Assembly (NCBI GenBank): GCA_964522815.1
Contig: CAZFXC010000003.1
Location: 2,261-29,501, forward strand
Length of the DNA stretch: 27,241 nt
Origin: an uncultured Candidatus Saccharibacteria bacterium
GTDB taxonomy: Bacteria; Patescibacteriota; Doudnabacteria; UBA920
Direction of reading: 5' to 3'
The position numbers and the translations under genes are program-made. The notes under the pieces were generated by a model. It ran no database searches and was not told the DNA's origin. It saw nothing but the letters and a program-made list of their open reading frames with translations. How positions within the stretch are numbered: the first letter of the stretch is position 1; each line of letters starts with the position of its first letter. This document shows positions 1-7,469 of this stretch, one piece after another.

Positions 1-987
1 CATGAATCCAGACGGATAGATAATCAGCTCCGCGGACGTGCCGGCAGACAGGGTGATGCTGGGTCATCGCAATTTTATGTAAGCATGGAAGACGATTTAA
101 TGCGTTTGTTTGGTGGGGAAAGAATGAAGTCCCTAATGACCACGCTAGGTCTGCCCGATGACCAACCTATTGAAGCCAAATTGGTGTCTCGGTCAATTGA
201 ATCCGCTCAAAAACGCATTGAAGGCCTAAATTTTGATACTCGAAAACACGTTTTAGAGTTTGATGATGTGTTAAACCATCAACGTAATACCATTTATACC
301 AAACGGAAAAATTTTGTTGCCGGTACCAAACAACAAACGGAATTCCATATCGCCGAAGAACTATTTCAATTAATTGAAAAAGAGTTAGACGATTTAATTC
401 AGTCCCACTTTGCCACCAGTGAAGACAAAACTGACAAAAATCTAGACGAGCTAATTAAAGCCATTACCGGCTTTATGCCGGTGACTTTGGAGCTCCAGAC
501 TGAAATTAAAAAATATGCCGATAATCCGGAATTGATAATTCAGACAATTAACGCTGAATGCAAAAAAATTTGGGCAAGTAGAATCCAGGAAATGGGTGAA
601 GAGGGTTTTTTGGGAGCTTTGAGATTTGTCGCACTTCAAGCCATTGACAGTCTGTGGATGGAACATTTAGACACAATGGATCATTTAAGAGACAGCGTAA
701 GGTTAAGGGGTTATGGCCAAAGAGATCCGTTAGTGGAATACAAAAAAGAAGGCCATCTTCTGTTTAAAAATTTATTGGCGGAAATTGATAAACAGATTGT
801 TTACACCATCTTTAGAGTCAGTATTAAAACCAACGAACAACTCAAACCACAGGAAAACTTAAGAGCTTTACAGACCGCAGATTCGACAGTTGGCAGAAAT
901 GATCCGTGCCCATGTGGGAGTGGAAAAAAATGGAAAAAGTGTGGCATGATTGGGGCAAAAGAACATGGGGTAAGTAGTAAGTTGTAA
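1..987 (+). CDS. secA: Preprotein translocase ATPase SecA, C-terminal part (5' end lies outside the window)
   Basis: Frame 1 is open from base 1: HESRRIDNQLRGRAGRQGDAGSSQFYVSMEDDLMRLFGG (SecA helicase motif VI region). Also IEGLNFDTRKHVLEFDDVLNHQR, WMEHLDTMDHLRDSVRLRGYGQRDPLVEYKKEG and a C-terminal GRNDPCPCGSGKK SEC-C motif. Confidence 0.99.
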   Translation, partial: HESRRIDNQLRGRAGRQGDAGSSQFYVSMEDDLMRLFGGERMKSLMTTLGLPDDQPIEAKLVSRSIESAQKRIEGLNFDTRKHVLEFDDVLNHQRNTIYTKRKNFVAGTKQQTEFHIAEELFQLIEKELDDLIQSHFATSEDKTDKNLDELIKAITGFMPVTLELQTEIKKYADNPELIIQTINAECKKIWASRIQEMGEEGFLGALRFVALQAIDSLWMEHLDTMDHLRDSVRLRGYGQRDPLVEYKKEGHLLFKNLLAEIDKQIVYTIFRVSIKTNEQLKPQENLRALQTADSTVGRNDPCPCGSGKKWKKCGMIGAKEHGVSSKL

Positions 988-1005
988 GCTGGTAAGTTGT
1001 AAGTA
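970..1005 (+). repeat. Five near-tandem copies of the 7-mer GTAAG(T/C)(A/T) spanning the secA stop codon
   Basis: GTAAGTA GTAAGTT GTAAGCT G GTAAGTT GTAAGTA, read directly from the sequence. Confidence 0.85.
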
Positions 1006-1040
1006 ATTAAAAAAAAATTAATCAATAATTATAAACAATT

Positions 1041-1316
1041 ATGGGAAAAGATTTTTTAAAAAAAGAACCAACCAAGTCGGAAAAAATGATTTATGAGTTA
1101 GCAATGAATCAACACCAAATGGAAAAAGCTATGTGGTCAACTTCCACCGTGGTAATGGCTTTGGCAATGCTAAGTAAAGTAAGTCCAGAAGATTTAGCCA
1201 AACAGATGTTTGAAGATGAAAAAATTAAAGCTTTTAGCCAACAAGTTAACGAAGTAATAAAAAAGTTAGAAGCAAGTAAAAATTCAGATGCGGATAAACA
1301 ATCCACAGGGCAATAA
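1041..1316 (+). CDS. Hypothetical protein (91 aa, predicted helical)
   Basis: ATG-started ORF filling the gap after secA on the operon strand, with amphipathic-helix composition. No family recognised. Confidence 0.75.
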   Translation: MGKDFLKKEPTKSEKMIYELAMNQHQMEKAMWSTSTVVMALAMLSKVSPEDLAKQMFEDEKIKAFSQQVNEVIKKLEASKNSDADKQSTGQ

Positions 1317-1325
1317 CAAGTATTG

Positions 1326-1334
1326 TGGTATAAT
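1326..1334 (+). promoter_or_regulatory. Extended -10 promoter (TGnTATAAT) for the 1343 ORF
   Basis: TGGTATAAT at 1326-1334 is a perfect extended -10. The ATG follows after an 8-nt gap. No clear -35. Confidence 0.65.
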
Positions 1335-1342
1335 ATGAGCGT

Positions 1343-1591
1343 ATGGAAAATACAAATTTTAAACCAATATTTGATTATATTGACCAAAAGGTTGATAATC
1401 TTGAAATTAAATTAAAGACTGAACTCGCGTCAAAACAAGATATCCAACGTATATTAAACGCAATTGATTCTTTTGCCGGACAATCTAAACTAAGAGAACA
1501 AGAACAAATAGTTCTTAAAGCAAAGACAGAAAGAATTGAGCATTGGGTTAATGATGCCTCAAAAAAAGTTAATGTGCCGTACTCAGTTTAA
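1343..1591 (+). CDS. Hypothetical coiled-coil protein (82 aa)
   Basis: ORF with its own extended -10 upstream and a terminator hairpin downstream. Heptad-like pattern IFDYIDQKVDNLEIKLKTELASKQDIQRILNAIDSF. Confidence 0.8.
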   Translation: MENTNFKPIFDYIDQKVDNLEIKLKTELASKQDIQRILNAIDSFAGQSKLREQEQIVLKAKTERIEHWVNDASKKVNVPYSV

Positions 1592-1618
1592 AACCATTGC
1601 TCAAAACTAAATAATCTT

Positions 1619-1647
1619 ATAAAATACCTTATATCAAGGTATTTTAT
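1619..1647 (+). terminator. Probable intrinsic terminator hairpin
   Basis: Perfect 12-bp inverted repeat ATAAAATACCTT / AAGGTATTTTAT with a 5-nt loop (ATATC) and a T-rich 3' side, 27 nt after the 1591 stop. Confidence 0.65.
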
Positions 1648-1653
1648 TATTTT

Positions 1654-2412
1654 ATGAATAACCCAGCCGAACAACCCAGAAATCCAGAAGCTAGACCTAA
1701 TCAGGAAATTGAAACTAAAATTAGAGATGTGGATTTGAAAATGCTCAAAGTAAATTTAAAATTGGCTCGTGCTAAGCTAACAACCGAGACAAGAAAGATT
1801 TCAGATAAAAGTTTTGAAAATAAAAAATCTCAATCTGGCGAGGGTGAGATTTTATCTGCAGAAGTGCTTAATCCGGAAAGTTTTAGGCAATTGTTTGAAA
1901 AGTTAGGCTATCAAGTAACTTCACAAAACGGGAAAATGCTTGTAAAAGGGGGAAATTTACATCCCAAAGTAAGAGTAAGAATCAGGAAAGACGGGGAAAG
2001 ATATTTTATAACCGCCAAATTTAAAGAAGCTAACCATAAAGTAGCTGAAGAGAGGGGAATAAAACAGAGAACCGAGTTAGAGGCCGAAATTCGGGATAAT
2101 TTAAATGCGGAAAAGTTGCTTAGAGCTTTGGGTTATGACTGTGCTTTTGAAAAAGAAAAGCATAGAACTTCCTACGAAATCGATTATAATGGCGTAAAGG
2201 TTAAGGTAGAAATTAATAAAAGTCCATTGGCTCAAGTTAAACCTTGGGTAGAAATAGAAGTCCCCAGTAATGAGTATTTGGTTAAAACCGCCCAACTTTT
2301 AGGGTTTAATAAACAAGATTTCTTTTCCGGCAGTGATAATGATTTATACCGGCGAGCCGGGGTTAGTGATGAGGAATTAAAAGTAATTAAATTTCCCAGT
2401 GGAAAAACTTAG
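1654..2412 (+). CDS. CYTH-domain (triphosphate tunnel metalloenzyme / CyaB-like) protein
   Basis: N-terminal ExExK motif (EIETK), VRVRIRKDG, ELEAEI...LLRALGY, EKEKHRTSYE and WVEIE, in the typical CYTH motif order. Confidence 0.85.
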   Translation: MNNPAEQPRNPEARPNQEIETKIRDVDLKMLKVNLKLARAKLTTETRKISDKSFENKKSQSGEGEILSAEVLNPESFRQLFEKLGYQVTSQNGKMLVKGGNLHPKVRVRIRKDGERYFITAKFKEANHKVAEERGIKQRTELEAEIRDNLNAEKLLRALGYDCAFEKEKHRTSYEIDYNGVKVKVEINKSPLAQVKPWVEIEVPSNEYLVKTAQLLGFNKQDFFSGSDNDLYRRAGVSDEELKVIKFPSGKT

Positions 2413-2845
2413 ACCAAAAATCGGGATTGGCGTATATATTTTAAATGCTCAAAAGCAAGTTTTATTAATGCTTAGAAAAGGTAAAAATGCGCCTGGAACT
2501 TGGGCTCCACCCGGTGGGCATTTGGAAATGGGCGAAGAATTACTTGACTGTGTAAAGCGAGAAACTTTAGAAGAAACGAATTTAAAGGTTAACGAGGCTG
2601 TGCTATGGGCGGTAAATAATAACACCAACGGTCAAGACTGGCACTATGTGAATTTGGATTATCTGGCAACAAGTTGGCACGGTGAAGCAAAAAATATGGA
2701 ATTGGAAAAGTGCGAAAAAATAGAATGGTTTAGTTTAAATAACTTACCTTCACCCCTAATGCTTCCAACCAAAAACTTTTTTGAGAGAAACCCCTTATGT
2801 TTATGTCAAAGCAATAAACGTTTTTACGATTGTCATGGAAAATAA
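2399..2845 (+). CDS. Nudix hydrolase (NUDT15/MutT-like) with C-terminal SEC-C-type motif
   Basis: Nudix box GGHLEMGEELLDCVKRETLEETNL. RPKIGIGVYI and NMELEKCEKIEWF resemble the NUDT15/NUDX1-type subfamily. GTG start overlaps the CYTH stop by 14 nt. Confidence 0.92.
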   Translation: MEKLRPKIGIGVYILNAQKQVLLMLRKGKNAPGTWAPPGGHLEMGEELLDCVKRETLEETNLKVNEAVLWAVNNNTNGQDWHYVNLDYLATSWHGEAKNMELEKCEKIEWFSLNNLPSPLMLPTKNFFERNPLCLCQSNKRFYDCHGK

Positions 2846-3398
2846 ACCTTTAAACTTCATTACCTCTAACCCCAAAAAAGTTTTTGAATTTCAAAAACGA
2901 CTTTTTCCTCTTATAGTAAAACAAATAAATATTGAACTGGAAGAAATCCAATCAATTGACCCAAAAGTAATAATCAAACATAAATTAAAATCCGCTTTTA
3001 AACACCACAAAGGACCGTTTTTAATAGAAGATGTATCGTTATACTTAGAATGCATGGGAGGAAAATTGCCAGGTCCGTTTATAAAGTTTTTTAATCAGCA
3101 TTTGGGTTCTAAGGGGATAGCTCATTTAGCCAAATCAACAAAAAAATTTAAAGCAAAAGCTGTGGTAATTATCGCTTACGCTAAAAATTTAAAACAGATA
3201 AAGTTTTTTACCGGCGTGGTAAAAGGAAAAGTTGTTTCACCCCGGGGGGCTTATAAATTTGGTTTTGATGAGTTTTTAGTCCCCAGCGGTCATTCTCAAA
3301 CCCTGTCAGAAATGAAAGCACAAGGGAACTTTGCACTAAGTCCCAGATCAAAAGCTATAGATAAATTAAAAAAACATTTGCAACATGAAAAATATTAG
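2835..3398 (+). CDS. rdgB: HAM1/ITPase-family non-canonical purine NTP pyrophosphatase (divergent specificity motif)
   Basis: FITSNPKK, ELEEIQ, IEDVSL, LPGPFIKFF, FGFD and terminal SPR (canonical SHR). Start reassigned to ATG 2835 (MENKPLNFITSN) because the 18 residues upstream in the ORF track overlap the Nudix gene and do not resemble the family. Confidence 0.88.
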   Translation: MENKPLNFITSNPKKVFEFQKRLFPLIVKQINIELEEIQSIDPKVIIKHKLKSAFKHHKGPFLIEDVSLYLECMGGKLPGPFIKFFNQHLGSKGIAHLAKSTKKFKAKAVVIIAYAKNLKQIKFFTGVVKGKVVSPRGAYKFGFDEFLVPSGHSQTLSEMKAQGNFALSPRSKAIDKLKKHLQHEKY

Positions 3399-5952
3399 AT
3401 TAGCAAACCATATTATCCCTTCGCGATATAAACTAATTTTAAAGCCAGATTTAAACAAGCATGTTTTTGAAGGTGAAGAAACTATTTATCTGAAATTGGA
3501 TAAATCGGTAAATGAGATTGTTTTGCATTCCAAGGAGTTAAAAATATTTAATGTGAAATTTTTAATTTCCAATTTTCAATTTCCATTTAAATCAGTCAAA
3601 TATAATAAAACCAACGAAACAGTAATTTTATGTTTTGCAAAAAAACTTCCCAAAGGCAAAGGAGAATTGAGATTAAAGTTTAAAGGCGTCTTAAATGATA
3701 AAATGCGAGGGTTTTACCGCAGTCAATACACCCACCAAGGTCAAACTAAACATTTAGCTACCACACAATTTGAGGCGACGGATGCCAGAAGGGCCTTCCC
3801 GTGTTTTGACGAGCCGGACAAAAAAGCTATTTTTGATATTAGCGTTATTCTGCCCAAAAAACTTACGGCAATTTCTAACACAGTGGAAAGTGAAATTCGT
3901 GAACATAATTCCGAATACAAGCTGGTTAAATTTGCCCCCAGTCCGAAAATGTCAACTTACTTAGTGGCTTTTATTGTTGGCGAATTTGAGTTTATTGAAG
4001 CAAAAACTCAAAGGGGAGTGGTAGTGAGGGTGTTTGTGACTCCCGGTAAACAGCATCAGGCAAAATTTGCTTTAAATACCGCAATTAAAGTTCTGGATTT
4101 TTATGAAAAATATTTTCAAATTAATTACCCCTTACCCATTTTGGACATGATTGCCATCCCAGATTTTTCTCATGGCGCCATGGAAAATTGGGGAGCTATT
4201 ACTTATCGAGAAAGCGCGTTATTATTTGATGAAGAAAAATCTTCCGCTTCCAACAAACAGTGGGTAGCTCTAGTGATTGCCCATGAGATTGCTCACCAAT
4301 GGTTTGGAAATTTAGTTACCATGAAATGGTGGACAGATTTATGGCTCAACGAAGGCTTTGCTTCTTACATTGAGTATCTGGCCGTTGATCAGATTTTTCC
4401 CAAGTGGGATATTTGGACTCAGTTTGCGTTTAATGATTTAGGGGTGGCTTTAAAATTAGATGCGTTAAATAATACTCATCCCATTGAAGTTAAGGTTAAT
4501 CATCCCAATGAAATTGGTGAAATTTTTGATGAAATTTCTTACAGTAAAGGCGCGAGTATTATTCGTATGCTGGCAGGCTACATTGGTGACGATAAATTTC
4601 GTCAGGGACTGAGATTATATTTAAAAAAGTATGCTTACGCCAATGCCGAAACTGTTAATCTCTGGCGCGCCTTTGAGCAGGTCTCTGGTAAACCTGTTCA
4701 AAAAATTATGAAGCTTTGGACTAGTCAAAGTGGTTATCCACTCGTTAAAATTACCCAAAAACCCACCGGTTTAGAATTTACCCAAGCTCGTTTTTATTCA
4801 TCCCCAATTTCCAAAAGAAAGTCAACAGACAAAACTCAATGGTCAATCCCCATCACTTTACAAAATTTAAACACTCATCAACGAGTCAGTTTTTTACTCC
4901 AAGGTAAATACTTTTTAAAGCTGGCTAAGCCTGAATTAACTCCAATTAAAATCAATTATTCAGAAACCGGATTTTACAGAACCGATTATCCGGCCGGGAT
5001 GTTACTTAATTTAAGCAAAGCGATTCAAAACAAAAAATTGCCCCCCATTGACCGACTGGGATTAATTAGAGACGCCTTTGCCATGTCGGAAAGTGCACAG
5101 TTACCAACCACGCAAGCTTTAAATTTAGCCAAAAGTTATCAGCACGAAACTGATTATACTGTCTGGGTGGAATTAAGTTCTGGCTTGCAAACTCTGGATA
5201 ATTTACTTTTTGGAACCAAATGTTACTTAGCTTATAAAGCTTTTTGTCAAGAACTTTATAAAAATATTGTGAAGCATGTGGGCTTTGTGGCGGTAAAAAA
5301 TGAATCTCATACTCAACAATTACTGAGAAGTTTAGTTTTGCAAATGGCTGGCAATGCGGGTAATAAAGCAGTCATTAGTCATGCAAAAAACCTCTTTTTA
5401 AAATGGCAACGTAACCATATCCCCGTTCCGGCCAATTTAAAGAGTGTGGTTTATAATTTGGTGGCGGAAACTGGCAATTTAAGCGACTACAACTTTTTGG
5501 TAAAAAAATATATTTCCGAGGATTTGCACGAGGAAAAAAATCGGATTGGCAGGGCTTTGGGTTTATTTAAAGATCCCAATATTATTTTAAAGACTTTAAA
5601 CTTTGCGCTCTCCAAACATGTTAGAATTCAAGATACGCCTAGTATATTTTTAAGCGCTTGGTCAAATCCTTATGCTCGAAAAACGGTTTTTCATTTCACT
5701 CAAAAACATTGGCCAAGCCTGTTAAACCGCTATCCAGCTTCCGGACACATGCTAAGCAGGTTCATCAAACCCATGTCGGTCTATAAAACCGCACAGGAAT
5801 TAGCTCAAGTCAAAAACTTTTTCAAAAACCATCAAGCCCCGGGTGCTTTAAGAGCCGTTAAACAGACTCTAGAAAAAATCCATTCCAATCTGTTGTGGTT
5901 GAATCGAGATATTCGGACAATTGAAAAATATTTATCCAAACCGAGTAATTAA
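3385..5952 (+). CDS. pepN: M1 family alanyl aminopeptidase (puromycin-sensitive/ERAP1-like C-terminal domain)
   Basis: ATTQFEATDARRAFPCFDEP, GAMENWG exopeptidase motif, zinc motif HEIAHQWFG followed by WLNEGFA, ISYSKG with the catalytic Tyr. 855 aa. Confidence 0.97.
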   Translation: MKNIRLANHIIPSRYKLILKPDLNKHVFEGEETIYLKLDKSVNEIVLHSKELKIFNVKFLISNFQFPFKSVKYNKTNETVILCFAKKLPKGKGELRLKFKGVLNDKMRGFYRSQYTHQGQTKHLATTQFEATDARRAFPCFDEPDKKAIFDISVILPKKLTAISNTVESEIREHNSEYKLVKFAPSPKMSTYLVAFIVGEFEFIEAKTQRGVVVRVFVTPGKQHQAKFALNTAIKVLDFYEKYFQINYPLPILDMIAIPDFSHGAMENWGAITYRESALLFDEEKSSASNKQWVALVIAHEIAHQWFGNLVTMKWWTDLWLNEGFASYIEYLAVDQIFPKWDIWTQFAFNDLGVALKLDALNNTHPIEVKVNHPNEIGEIFDEISYSKGASIIRMLAGYIGDDKFRQGLRLYLKKYAYANAETVNLWRAFEQVSGKPVQKIMKLWTSQSGYPLVKITQKPTGLEFTQARFYSSPISKRKSTDKTQWSIPITLQNLNTHQRVSFLLQGKYFLKLAKPELTPIKINYSETGFYRTDYPAGMLLNLSKAIQNKKLPPIDRLGLIRDAFAMSESAQLPTTQALNLAKSYQHETDYTVWVELSSGLQTLDNLLFGTKCYLAYKAFCQELYKNIVKHVGFVAVKNESHTQQLLRSLVLQMAGNAGNKAVISHAKNLFLKWQRNHIPVPANLKSVVYNLVAETGNLSDYNFLVKKYISEDLHEEKNRIGRALGLFKDPNIILKTLNFALSKHVRIQDTPSIFLSAWSNPYARKTVFHFTQKHWPSLLNRYPASGHMLSRFIKPMSVYKTAQELAQVKNFFKNHQAPGALRAVKQTLEKIHSNLLWLNRDIRTIEKYLSKPSN
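3557..3584 (+). repeat. Four tandem 7-mers AATTT(T/C)(T/C) inside pepN
   Basis: AATTTTT AATTTCC AATTTTC AATTTCC, encoding KFLISNFQFP. Confidence 0.6.
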
Positions 5953-5962
5953 CAGTGTACTC

Positions 5963-5991
5963 TTGCAAAAAAAATTAAACTTACCTATAAT
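5963..5991 (+). promoter_or_regulatory. Sigma70-type promoter for secDF
   Basis: TTGCAA (5963-5968), 17-nt spacer, TATAAT (5986-5991). The secD ATG follows after an 11-nt gap. Confidence 0.8.
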
Positions 5992-6002
5992 CTGTTGTAT
6001 AT

Positions 6003-7469
6003 ATGACAATAAAAGCTAAACAATATTTTGGGCTTTTGGGAGTAATACTGCTGGCGGTATCCGCTTTATGGATAGTTTATCCTAAAGGTTCAAAAATTAA
6101 TTTAAAACCCCTTAAAATTCCTTTTGAAAAAACCTTTAAAGTTAACCTAGGCTTAGATTTACAAGGTGGTTCGCATTTGGTTTACTTGGCTGATTTTAAA
6201 TCCATTCCAGAAGGGGATAGGCCTGAGTCTTTAAATGGGATTAGAGATGTAATTGAAAGAAGAGTCAATAGTTTCGGCGTTAGCGAGCCTTTGGTGGCAA
6301 TTTCGGGTAATGACAAAATTATTGTGGAATTGCCCGGTATTAAAGACGTAAATGAAGCCATTAAGTTAATTGGCGAAACCCCACTTTTGGAATTTCGCAC
6401 ACAGAATCCCGAACAAAAACCCATTACACCGGATGAAAATGGCAACGTTGTTCTTAACCCGTTAGAAGCTTGGTTACCGACTAAATTATCGGGTAAGCAA
6501 TTAAAGCGCGCCACGGTTGATTTTCAACAAAGCTCCGGTTTGGTGAACGAAGTGGTCGTAAGTTTGGAATTTAACGATGAAGGCAAGGAACTGTTTGCCA
6601 AGATTACCTCTGAAAATTTACAAAAACCGGTTGCCATAGTTTTAGATGGCGAAATAATTAGTGCCCCTGTTGTGCAAAGCGCCATTACCGATGGCAAAGC
6701 CATCATTAGTGGCAATTTTACCACTGAGCAAGCCAAAATTTTAGTTAGAAGATTAAACAGTGGCGCGTTGCCTGTGCCAATTGAATTAATTTCTCAGCAA
6801 AGTGTTGGAGCCAGCTTGGGTAAGGTTTCTGTGCATAAATCCTTAATTGCTGGCTTTATTGGTCTGTTAACCGTAATTATATTCATGATTGGTTACTATC
6901 GTTTCCCAGGTTTTCTAGCTTCCATAAGTTTATTAATTTACACATTGTTAGCTTTTGCGGTGTTTAAAATTGGCATTTCTTTTTCCGCGGTGGTCTTAGT
7001 CGGACTGTTCTTTTTCTTAGCATTAACTGTAAATTCCAAATTTGGAATTTTGGCCTTATTAAGTTATTTAATATTGGTTTTAAGTGGTGGTGTCTCTCCG
7101 GTTACCTTAACTTTAGCCGGTATTGCCGGTTTCATCTTATCGGTGGGTATGGCCGTTGACGCCAATATCTTAATATTTGAAAGATTAAGAGAAGAAATCA
7201 GAAGTGGTAAAACCATTGAAAAAGCTTTGGATGATGGTTTTAGCCGAGCTTGGTTATCTATCCGTGACTCAAATGTTTCCAGTTTAATTACTTGCTTAAT
7301 ATTATATTTATACGGAACGCCAGCCATCAAAGGTTTTGCTGTAACTCTCTCAATCGGAATTTTATTTTCCATGTTTACCGCCATAACCATAACCAAATTA
7401 TTTTTGAAACTTTTTATTACCAATAAGCTATTTGCCAGACCTTGGTTGTTTGGAGTTAAAATGAAATAA
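6003..7469 (+). CDS. secD: Protein translocase subunit SecD
   Basis: LGLDLQGG, IERRVNSFGVSEP, IIVELPG, AIVLDG, LNSGALPVP, TLTLAGIAGFILSVGMAVDANILIFER, GFAVTL. Confidence 0.98.
   Translation: MTIKAKQYFGLLGVILLAVSALWIVYPKGSKINLKPLKIPFEKTFKVNLGLDLQGGSHLVYLADFKSIPEGDRPESLNGIRDVIERRVNSFGVSEPLVAISGNDKIIVELPGIKDVNEAIKLIGETPLLEFRTQNPEQKPITPDENGNVVLNPLEAWLPTKLSGKQLKRATVDFQQSSGLVNEVVVSLEFNDEGKELFAKITSENLQKPVAIVLDGEIISAPVVQSAITDGKAIISGNFTTEQAKILVRRLNSGALPVPIELISQQSVGASLGKVSVHKSLIAGFIGLLTVIIFMIGYYRFPGFLASISLLIYTLLAFAVFKIGISFSAVVLVGLFFFLALTVNSKFGILALLSYLILVLSGGVSPVTLTLAGIAGFILSVGMAVDANILIFERLREEIRSGKTIEKALDDGFSRAWLSIRDSNVSSLITCLILYLYGTPAIKGFAVTLSIGILFSMFTAITITKLFLKLFITNKLFARPWLFGVKMK

Follow-up and report, generated by a model that had tools for sequence, protein, structure and literature searches.

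The stretch of DNA analyzed here (hereafter the window) comprises 27,241 nt of contig CAZFXC010000003.1 (positions 2,261 to 29,501 of the forward strand; GenBank assembly GCA_964522815.1), from an uncultured Candidatus Saccharibacteria bacterium placed by GTDB within the Doudnabacteria (UBA920). Three consecutive, overlapping genes near the start of the window encode a CYTH, a Nudix and a HAM1 protein, and they fill the variable part of a slot that is bounded by secA and the small gene orf91 on one side and by the aminopeptidase gene pepN on the other. On balance, the trio probably constitutes a co-expressed, loosely coupled nucleotide-hygiene island within this slot, which varies in content throughout a family of related genomes. 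The identity of the genes, their intact catalytic residues, the purifying selection acting on them and the synteny and mosaic pattern of the slot are direct observations of the present analysis. The genome to which the window belongs (G000; 0.92 Mb in 128 contigs, 94% complete) has as its closest public metagenome-assembled genomes (MAGs) entries labeled Candidatus Doudnabacteria or Patescibacteria group. The three genes are:

1654–2412, + strand: CYTH, 252 aa, a long-form CYTH protein/triphosphate tunnel metalloenzyme (TTM)
2399–2845, + strand: Nudix, 148 aa, GTG start, a MutT/NUDX1/NUDT15-like hydrolase
2835–3398, + strand: HAM1, 187 aa counted from the ATG at 2835, an ITPA-type HAM1 protein/ITPase (an alternative TTG start at 2781 was judged unlikely)

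Sixty relatives were searched with each of the three proteins, and the loci were annotated using tblastn, our own hidden Markov models (HMMs) and Pfam; the synteny set was enlarged by metagenome contigs and by scanning the GTDB species genomes with the alignment of Nudix. P0018 and P0034 added no gene context, their contigs being too short or lacking DNA. Throughout one Doudnabacteria-like family of Patescibacteria, the backbone secA–orf91–variable part–pepN–secD proved to be conserved. Across these searches we counted by hand ~33 distinct versions of the variable part, with the following contents:

HAM1: 24 of ~33 slots
Any Nudix gene: 26 of ~33 slots
Nudix with a SEC-C-like tail (see below): 17 of ~33 slots
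CYTH: 11 of ~33 slots
Uracil-DNA glycosylase (UDG)-superfamily glycosylase, family-4-like by motif: 10 of ~33 slots
Weakly guanylate-kinase (GK)-like P-loop protein: 6 of ~33 slots, once fused to Nudix
HD_3/YfbR-like 5′-deoxynucleotidase: 2 of ~33 slots
DHH protein: 1 of ~33 slots

CYTH, Nudix and HAM1 occur together in six of these slots, and the CYTH-Nudix-HAM1-pepN order of the window recurs in G003, a member of the same genus, as well as in G027, which belongs to another genus. The co-location reported by a first-pass annotation of this DNA, for which a synteny comparison had been suggested as a check, therefore extends to related genomes. Further arrangements include CYTH-GNAT-Nudix-HAM1-UDG-pepN on one metagenome contig, Nudix-HAM1-UDG-CYTH-pepN in L065 and Nudix-HD-Nudix-orf91-CYTH(short)-HAM1 in G029. 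Every sub-combination of the trio is likewise represented: HAM1 is the only gene between orf91 and pepN in G004, G006, G017 and G031; Nudix stands alone in G001, is paired with UDG in G016 and G010 and with HAM1 in G002, L061, L064 and L068; CYTH lacks HAM1 in G021 and on contigs P0013 and P0028, and is found without Nudix in G019, where the order is CYTH-kinase-HAM1. Components are thus lost one at a time. Nine of the 11 CYTH-containing slots have a Nudix gene beside CYTH or elsewhere in the same slot. Gene order is shuffled as well (GK-Nudix-HAM1 in L060 versus Nudix-GK-HAM1 in L063), and in G007 a 349-aa fusion (L026, 1905–2954) joins a guanylate-kinase-like P-loop domain to a SEC-C-tailed Nudix. 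Between G000 and G003, synonymous divergence amounts to 0.29–0.53 for orf91, CYTH and Nudix, compared with 1.1–2.4 for HAM1, pepN and secD, a jump suggestive of a recombination boundary close to where Nudix meets HAM1.

The family assignments of the first-pass annotation were corroborated for all three proteins by Pfam matches and retained catalytic residues, and for CYTH by its fold as well. CYTH gave a partial match to PF01928 (30 bits; cut-off 23.2) and, with 32.3 bits, fell below the cut-off of TIGR00318, the equivalog for the class IV adenylate cyclase CyaB (57.95). As phmmer retrieved nothing from the PDB at E ≤ 1, a fold search was used instead. With an AlphaFold2 (AF2) model built on the long-form alignment (predicted local distance difference test score, pLDDT, 93; predicted template modeling score, pTM, 0.86), the top Foldseek matches were all CYTH/TTM proteins (probability 1.0; target-based template modeling (TM) score 0.74–0.78), the best being PH1012, SaTTM, YpAC-IV and thiamine triphosphatase, with 7z67 also among the fold matches. 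In the model, CYTH adopts the β-barrel tunnel fold. The residues typical of the superfamily are in place, namely the ExExK motif (E18-I-E20-T-K22), basic tunnel residues and a C-terminal acidic pair; across 33 long-form members there is no variation at E18, E20, R109, R111, K122, E141, R171, E200 and E202. SaTTM binds two metals through E5, E7, E135 and E137 and hydrolyzes tripolyphosphate (PPPi) with a Km of 41 µM, ATP and GTP having been assayed too (PMC8233210). Plausibly, E18, E20, E200 and E202 of CYTH correspond to these four ligands.

What sets CYTH apart is an insert of ~50 aa (residues 56–105), predicted to form a strand-helix-strand-strand unit and without counterpart in the matched structures. 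Among 1.84 billion representatives there were 170 matches to CYTH at E ≤ 1e-3, and ~45 of these are 235–285 aa long and aligned over their full length, forming a small long-form subfamily (clusters at 50% identity). Canonical CYTH proteins of 170–180 aa align to the window protein only from residue 105 onward, and a word-index search found just three close relatives. Outside the slot, long-form CYTH genes have no Nudix or HAM1 gene alongside. The CYTH gene of G003 (L017, 3917–4669) is truncated by one premature stop, a TAG at codon 191 that precedes the last E-x-E strand.

Nudix matched PF00293 with 70.9 bits (cut-off 21.1) and contains the Nudix box (G40...E46...R54-E55..E58-E59), with Asn at the last Gly position, as in the solved structure 4kyx. 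This structure, Arabidopsis NUDX1 (AtNUDX1) and human NUDT15 are its best solved relatives. It scored below the cut-off of the MutT equivalog TIGR00586 (35.5 versus 97.9 bits), and RppH models matched it weakly (E ~5e-6, far below cut-off). Its C-terminus carries an additional element:

2798–2836, + strand: SEC-C-like C-x-C-x8-C-H zinc motif at the Nudix C-terminus

Within this tail, C134, C136, S138, K140, C145 and H146 are invariant in nine orthologs, and the C-x-C-x8-C-H spacing is exact. Against the Pfam SEC-C family (PF02810; cut-off 20.4), the window tail reached 14.3 bits and that of the G007 ortholog 25.3 bits, i.e. above the cut-off. Slots that lack CYTH or HAM1 can likewise hold a SEC-C-tailed Nudix gene.

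HAM1 matched PF01725 with 102 bits (cut-off 22.5) and, like its two neighbors, stayed below its NCBIfam equivalog cut-off (TIGR00042, RdgB/HAM1; 93 versus 145 bits). Its best solved relatives are 8ji1 and human ITPA. The T-S-N-x-x-K motif, the Mg-binding Glu and the E-D, LPGP and F-G-F-D motifs are intact and conserved across 37 family members. Two positions depart from the consensus, in that HAM1 has S-P-R instead of S-H-R and an Asn aligned to the lysine of the human ITPA EKN motif. Family members have P, A, M, T or H as the middle residue of S-x-R, with or without an accompanying CYTH or Nudix gene, and the solved ITPase 8ji1 likewise reads S-P-R. The claim that each of the three proteins has a non-canonical feature holds in that each deviates from its family consensus, through the CYTH insert, the SEC-C-like Nudix tail and the S-P-R motif of HAM1 together with the missing EKN lysine. 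All three genes are under purifying selection, with ratios of nonsynonymous to synonymous substitution rates (dN/dS) relative to G003 of 0.27 (CYTH), 0.06 (Nudix) and 0.10 (HAM1).

Substrates, co-transcription and physiological role are our inferences; on this reading, the genes would encode three separate, individually active nucleotide phosphohydrolases. CYTH would most likely be an Mg-dependent triphosphatase acting on PPPi or on the γ-phosphate of NTPs, Nudix a MutT/NUDX1/NUDT15-like pyrophosphohydrolase, and HAM1 an ITPA-type pyrophosphatase of (d)ITP and XTP. In Doudnabacteria-like Patescibacteria, the slot would then serve as a nucleotide-hygiene and salvage island, in which co-location secures the co-expression of enzymes with a common theme, the removal of damaged or non-canonical nucleotides in a very small genome, and which would encode no obligate multi-step pathway. 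The theme is supported by the predominance of nucleotide and base-repair enzymes among the variable slot genes, by the kinase::Nudix fusion and by the shuffling of gene order while adjacency is maintained. As independent parallels we count secA-mutT of E. coli, the secA-Nudix linkage in L074 and L075 of the candidate phyla radiation (CPR), a Nudix/CYTH array in an unrelated bacterium (L096) and a second CYTH-containing cluster in G000 (around P0156), the latter two being described further below. The locus shows how nucleotide hygiene can be organized in an ultra-small Patescibacteria genome, with a single variable slot behind secA gathering ITPase, MutT-like Nudix, UDG, 5′-nucleotidase, kinase-like and CYTH genes. 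This is useful for the annotation and modeling of CPR metabolism; it is not a new kind of system. The long-form CYTH with its 50-residue insert, the SEC-C-tailed Nudix, the S-P-R ITPase and the seeming absence of a canonical guanylate kinase (see below) merit work at the bench.

Each enzyme belongs to a known superfamily, and in the cluster we see a lineage-specific, expanded form of the known secA-mutT linkage and of the clustering of house-cleaning genes. E. coli K-12 has mutT 59 bp 3′ of secA; as in that secM-secA-mutT arrangement, a MutT-type Nudix gene follows secA on the same strand here, and it does so immediately in G013, G021 and G029 and in the other CPR lineages represented by L074 and L075. 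In contrast to E. coli, the window Nudix is separated from secA by 1.4 kb comprising orf91, a small open reading frame (ORF) named orf82 and CYTH, bears the SEC-C-like zinc tail and has HAM1 and pepN behind it; in relatives, the slot holds several further nucleotide enzymes. Nudix and HAM1 share Pfam families and intact catalytic motifs with the house-cleaning enzymes MutT/NUDT15/AtNUDX1 and ITPA/RdgB, respectively, and differ from them in the features described above and in scoring below the equivalog cut-offs. CYTH resembles SaTTM (7NS8–7NSF), PH1012 (2DC4) and YpAC-IV (2FJT) in ExExK motif, basic tunnel residues, C-terminal E-x-E and fold, yet it is 252 aa long as opposed to their ~165–180 aa, and solved TTM members lack both its insert and its N-terminal extension of 16 residues. 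Plant TTM1 and TTM2 consist of a P-loop kinase fused to a TTM domain (7Z67), and a GK-like gene adjoins CYTH in G019 and on contig P0028. The window cluster, however, contains no kinase gene, and in this lineage the kinase is separate or fused to Nudix, and not to CYTH. Among the papers searched, none deals with CYTH, Nudix and HAM1 jointly.

As had been noted before, the genes of the trio overlap, and the ORF list and sequence bear this out: Nudix starts (GTG, 2399) 14 nt before the end of CYTH (stop codon 2410–2412), HAM1 (ATG, 2835) 11 nt before that of Nudix (2843–2845) and pepN (ATG, 3385) 14 nt before that of HAM1 (3396–3398). Overlaps of 4–16 nt were read from the ORF list at eight of the 23 same-strand junctions of the window; since overlap is a habit of this genome, those of the trio represent ordinary tight packing and carry no special signal. 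A consensus terminator scan called no internal terminator-like site on the + strand of CYTH-Nudix-HAM1-pepN. In four metatranscriptome runs of a single wastewater study, contigs bridge positions 900–6200, which is a weak hint at transcription across this region, given that DNA carry-over is possible and that such contigs cannot give starts, ends, strand or proof of a single RNA. CYTH, Nudix and HAM1 are probably co-transcribed with pepN.

Upstream of CYTH, two elements stand out:

1619–1647, + strand: AT-rich stem-loop followed by a U-run, 12-bp stem, ending 7 nt 5′ of the CYTH ATG
1597–1606, + strand: TTGCTCAAAA motif, a possible −35-like element 5′ of the hairpin, identical in G000, G003 and G027

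The hairpin has a free energy of −12 kcal/mol (z = −3.2), and none of 200 shuffled sequences folded as well. The consensus terminator scan missed it because its stem holds only two G-C pairs. It is kept in G003 and G027, the G027 stem showing two compensatory pair changes that affect both arms and retain pairing. It belongs to no Rfam family, the sole match being a chance hit to an sRNA within the CYTH gene (E = 0.18). Since other genera differ upstream, where orf91 is followed by a G+C-rich terminator or leaves no gap, the hairpin represents an RNA or DNA structure conserved within one sub-lineage. The hairpin previously reported ahead of CYTH is thus real, with terminator being one of three possible roles: it may terminate the upstream unit, attenuate read-through or form a hairpin in the 5′ untranslated region (UTR). 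A weak promoter-like match at 1587–1615 surrounds TTGCTCAAAA, which possibly functions as a −35-like element.

Several points weigh against a nucleotide-hygiene island. The slot also harbors genes foreign to this theme (GNAT, a TrpR-like helix-turn-helix (HTH) protein, DUF1653, polysaccharide deacetylase, MBL-fold and glyoxalase), and because such unrelated genes sit there it may in part be an indel hotspot. The synteny evidence is not independent, since all of it stems from a single family of related genomes, and a U-run hairpin directly 5′ of the CYTH start is compatible with more than one promoter and transcript structure. The off-theme genes would also fit a scenario in which the enzymes are functionally unrelated members of a dense co-directional array, brought together by inherited gene order and an insertion-permissive gap. 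We consider this unlikely. It would account for the slots with HAM1 as the sole gene between orf91 and pepN, for the frequency of overlaps in the window, and for the finding that 67 loci of this Nudix subfamily from outside the family had no HAM1 within 5 kb (the HMM applied recognizes E. coli RdgB at 6e-22). However, the great majority of the variable slot genes encode nucleotide or DNA-base hydrolases or kinases, genes remain adjacent although their order changes, a GK-like domain has become fused to Nudix in G007, and Nudix-CYTH and HD-CYTH adjacencies recur elsewhere, all of which argues for a shared theme.

The first-pass annotation had gone further and proposed that the trio might target an unusual modified nucleotide, for instance one derived from a phage or a host. 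Its broader idea of a sanitation module is supported, in that the slot of relatives also gathers UDG, YfbR-like HD, extra Nudix and GK-like kinase genes. A dedicated pathway with the deviations of each enzyme tuned to one such nucleotide is, in contrast, very improbable. While each protein does depart from its family consensus and all three score below equivalog cut-offs, these deviations are lineage traits that are also present in slots without the partners or the full trio, S-P-R is shared with 8ji1, and the mosaic slots, single losses and the truncated CYTH of G003 do not fit an integrated pathway. Nor is there a signature of phage or defense. No phage genes lie nearby, and PADLOC-DB had nothing for CYTH or HAM1 and, for Nudix, only the candidate model PDC-S07 (4e-13), which we take as a general Nudix-domain match; with nothing specific in PADLOC, an anti-phage defense function was dropped.

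RNA triphosphatases belong to the CYTH superfamily, and RppH to the Nudix family. CYTH and Nudix might accordingly act in sequence on 5′-triphosphate ends (pppRNA to ppRNA to pRNA) with the SEC-C tail as a ribosome tether, or CYTH might be a class IV cyclase whose product is degraded by the other two enzymes. Beyond this family background, the recurrence of Nudix with CYTH in nine of 11 CYTH slots and in an unrelated MAG (L096) and the invariant tail could be explained in this way. Of the alternatives, we nevertheless give this one the least credence: Nudix is closest to NUDX1, NUDT15 and MutT-type enzymes and matches RppH models weakly, HAM1, UDG, HD and GK-like neighbors point to free nucleotides and DNA as opposed to RNA ends, G019 has CYTH without Nudix, and for the cyclase variant the CyaB score is 32 bits, with the cut-off at 58. 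An equally slight chance attaches to the bolder proposal that long-form CYTH and SEC-C-tailed Nudix form a two-step system for removing 5′-triphosphates from RNA ends or imported NTPs, with the zinc tail docking Nudix on ribosomes or SecA. If true, such a system would fill in the still missing first step of RNA decay of the RppH type or, alternatively, keep scavenged nucleotides in quarantine in a symbiont whose genome yielded no canonical guanylate kinase. We regard the trio itself as ordinary housekeeping in an unusual package.

Further nucleotide genes are found elsewhere in the genome. A canonical guanylate kinase (PF00625) was not found in G000 or in 36 relatives of the same order (37 genomes, mostly >90% complete); the Pfam cut-off was passed, weakly, only by the kinase-like slot genes of G007 and G019. 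IMP dehydrogenase and ribonucleotide reductase are present in G000, and no UDG-superfamily gene was found there. A second nucleotide cluster of G000 (contig C8, locus L139, 3558–9857) comprises, in this order, a thymidylate-kinase-like gene (− strand), a deoxynucleoside monophosphate (dNMP)-kinase-like gene (− strand), an HD_3/YfbR-like 5′-deoxynucleotidase gene (5040–5657), the CYTH-like gene P0156 (5730–6419), thyA, a 128-aa ORF and the genes for DHFR, a transporter and dCTP deaminase (− strand). The 229-aa P0156 protein has ExExK, RxR, RxExE and E-x-E motifs and no Pfam match; its gene thus sits between those for an HD 5′-deoxynucleotidase and thyA in a deoxynucleoside triphosphate (dNTP)-metabolism cluster. 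In the unrelated uncultured bacterium, L096 (4538–9286) is a co-directional array of Nudix, a Nudix fragment, a 193-aa canonical CYTH, Nudix, two ORFs without assigned function and two further Nudix genes, with no secA or pepN nearby.

The slot of the window is flanked and preceded by the following genes:

1–987, + strand: 3′ end of secA, upstream anchor of the slot (Pfam SecA_SW, P-loop_SecA and SEC-C), syntenic in relatives
1041–1316, + strand: orf91, a small conserved protein with tblastn/HMM matches in nearly all slot loci
1343–1591, + strand: orf82, a small ORF with tblastn matches only in G001, G007, G010 and G031
3385–5952, + strand: pepN, M1 aminopeptidase, downstream anchor of the slot (Pfam Peptidase_M1_N, Peptidase_M1 and ERAP1_C), syntenic in relatives

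At the SecA C-terminus (window positions 880–987), the zinc motif of G000 and of many of its relatives reads C-P-C-G-S-G-K-K-x-K-K-C-G-[ML]..N..E-H, with Gly in place of the fourth ligand and a His further on. Other relatives (among L018–L075) have SecA tails that end in the canonical C-H-G-K. A pairing between loss of the fourth zinc ligand in SecA and gain of the Nudix tail does not hold, because L063 and L064 carry both a canonical SecA tail and a tailed Nudix. As for orf91, it matched no Pfam family; it lies directly 3′ of secA in almost every genome of the Doudnabacteria-like family, and its C-terminus is often His-rich.

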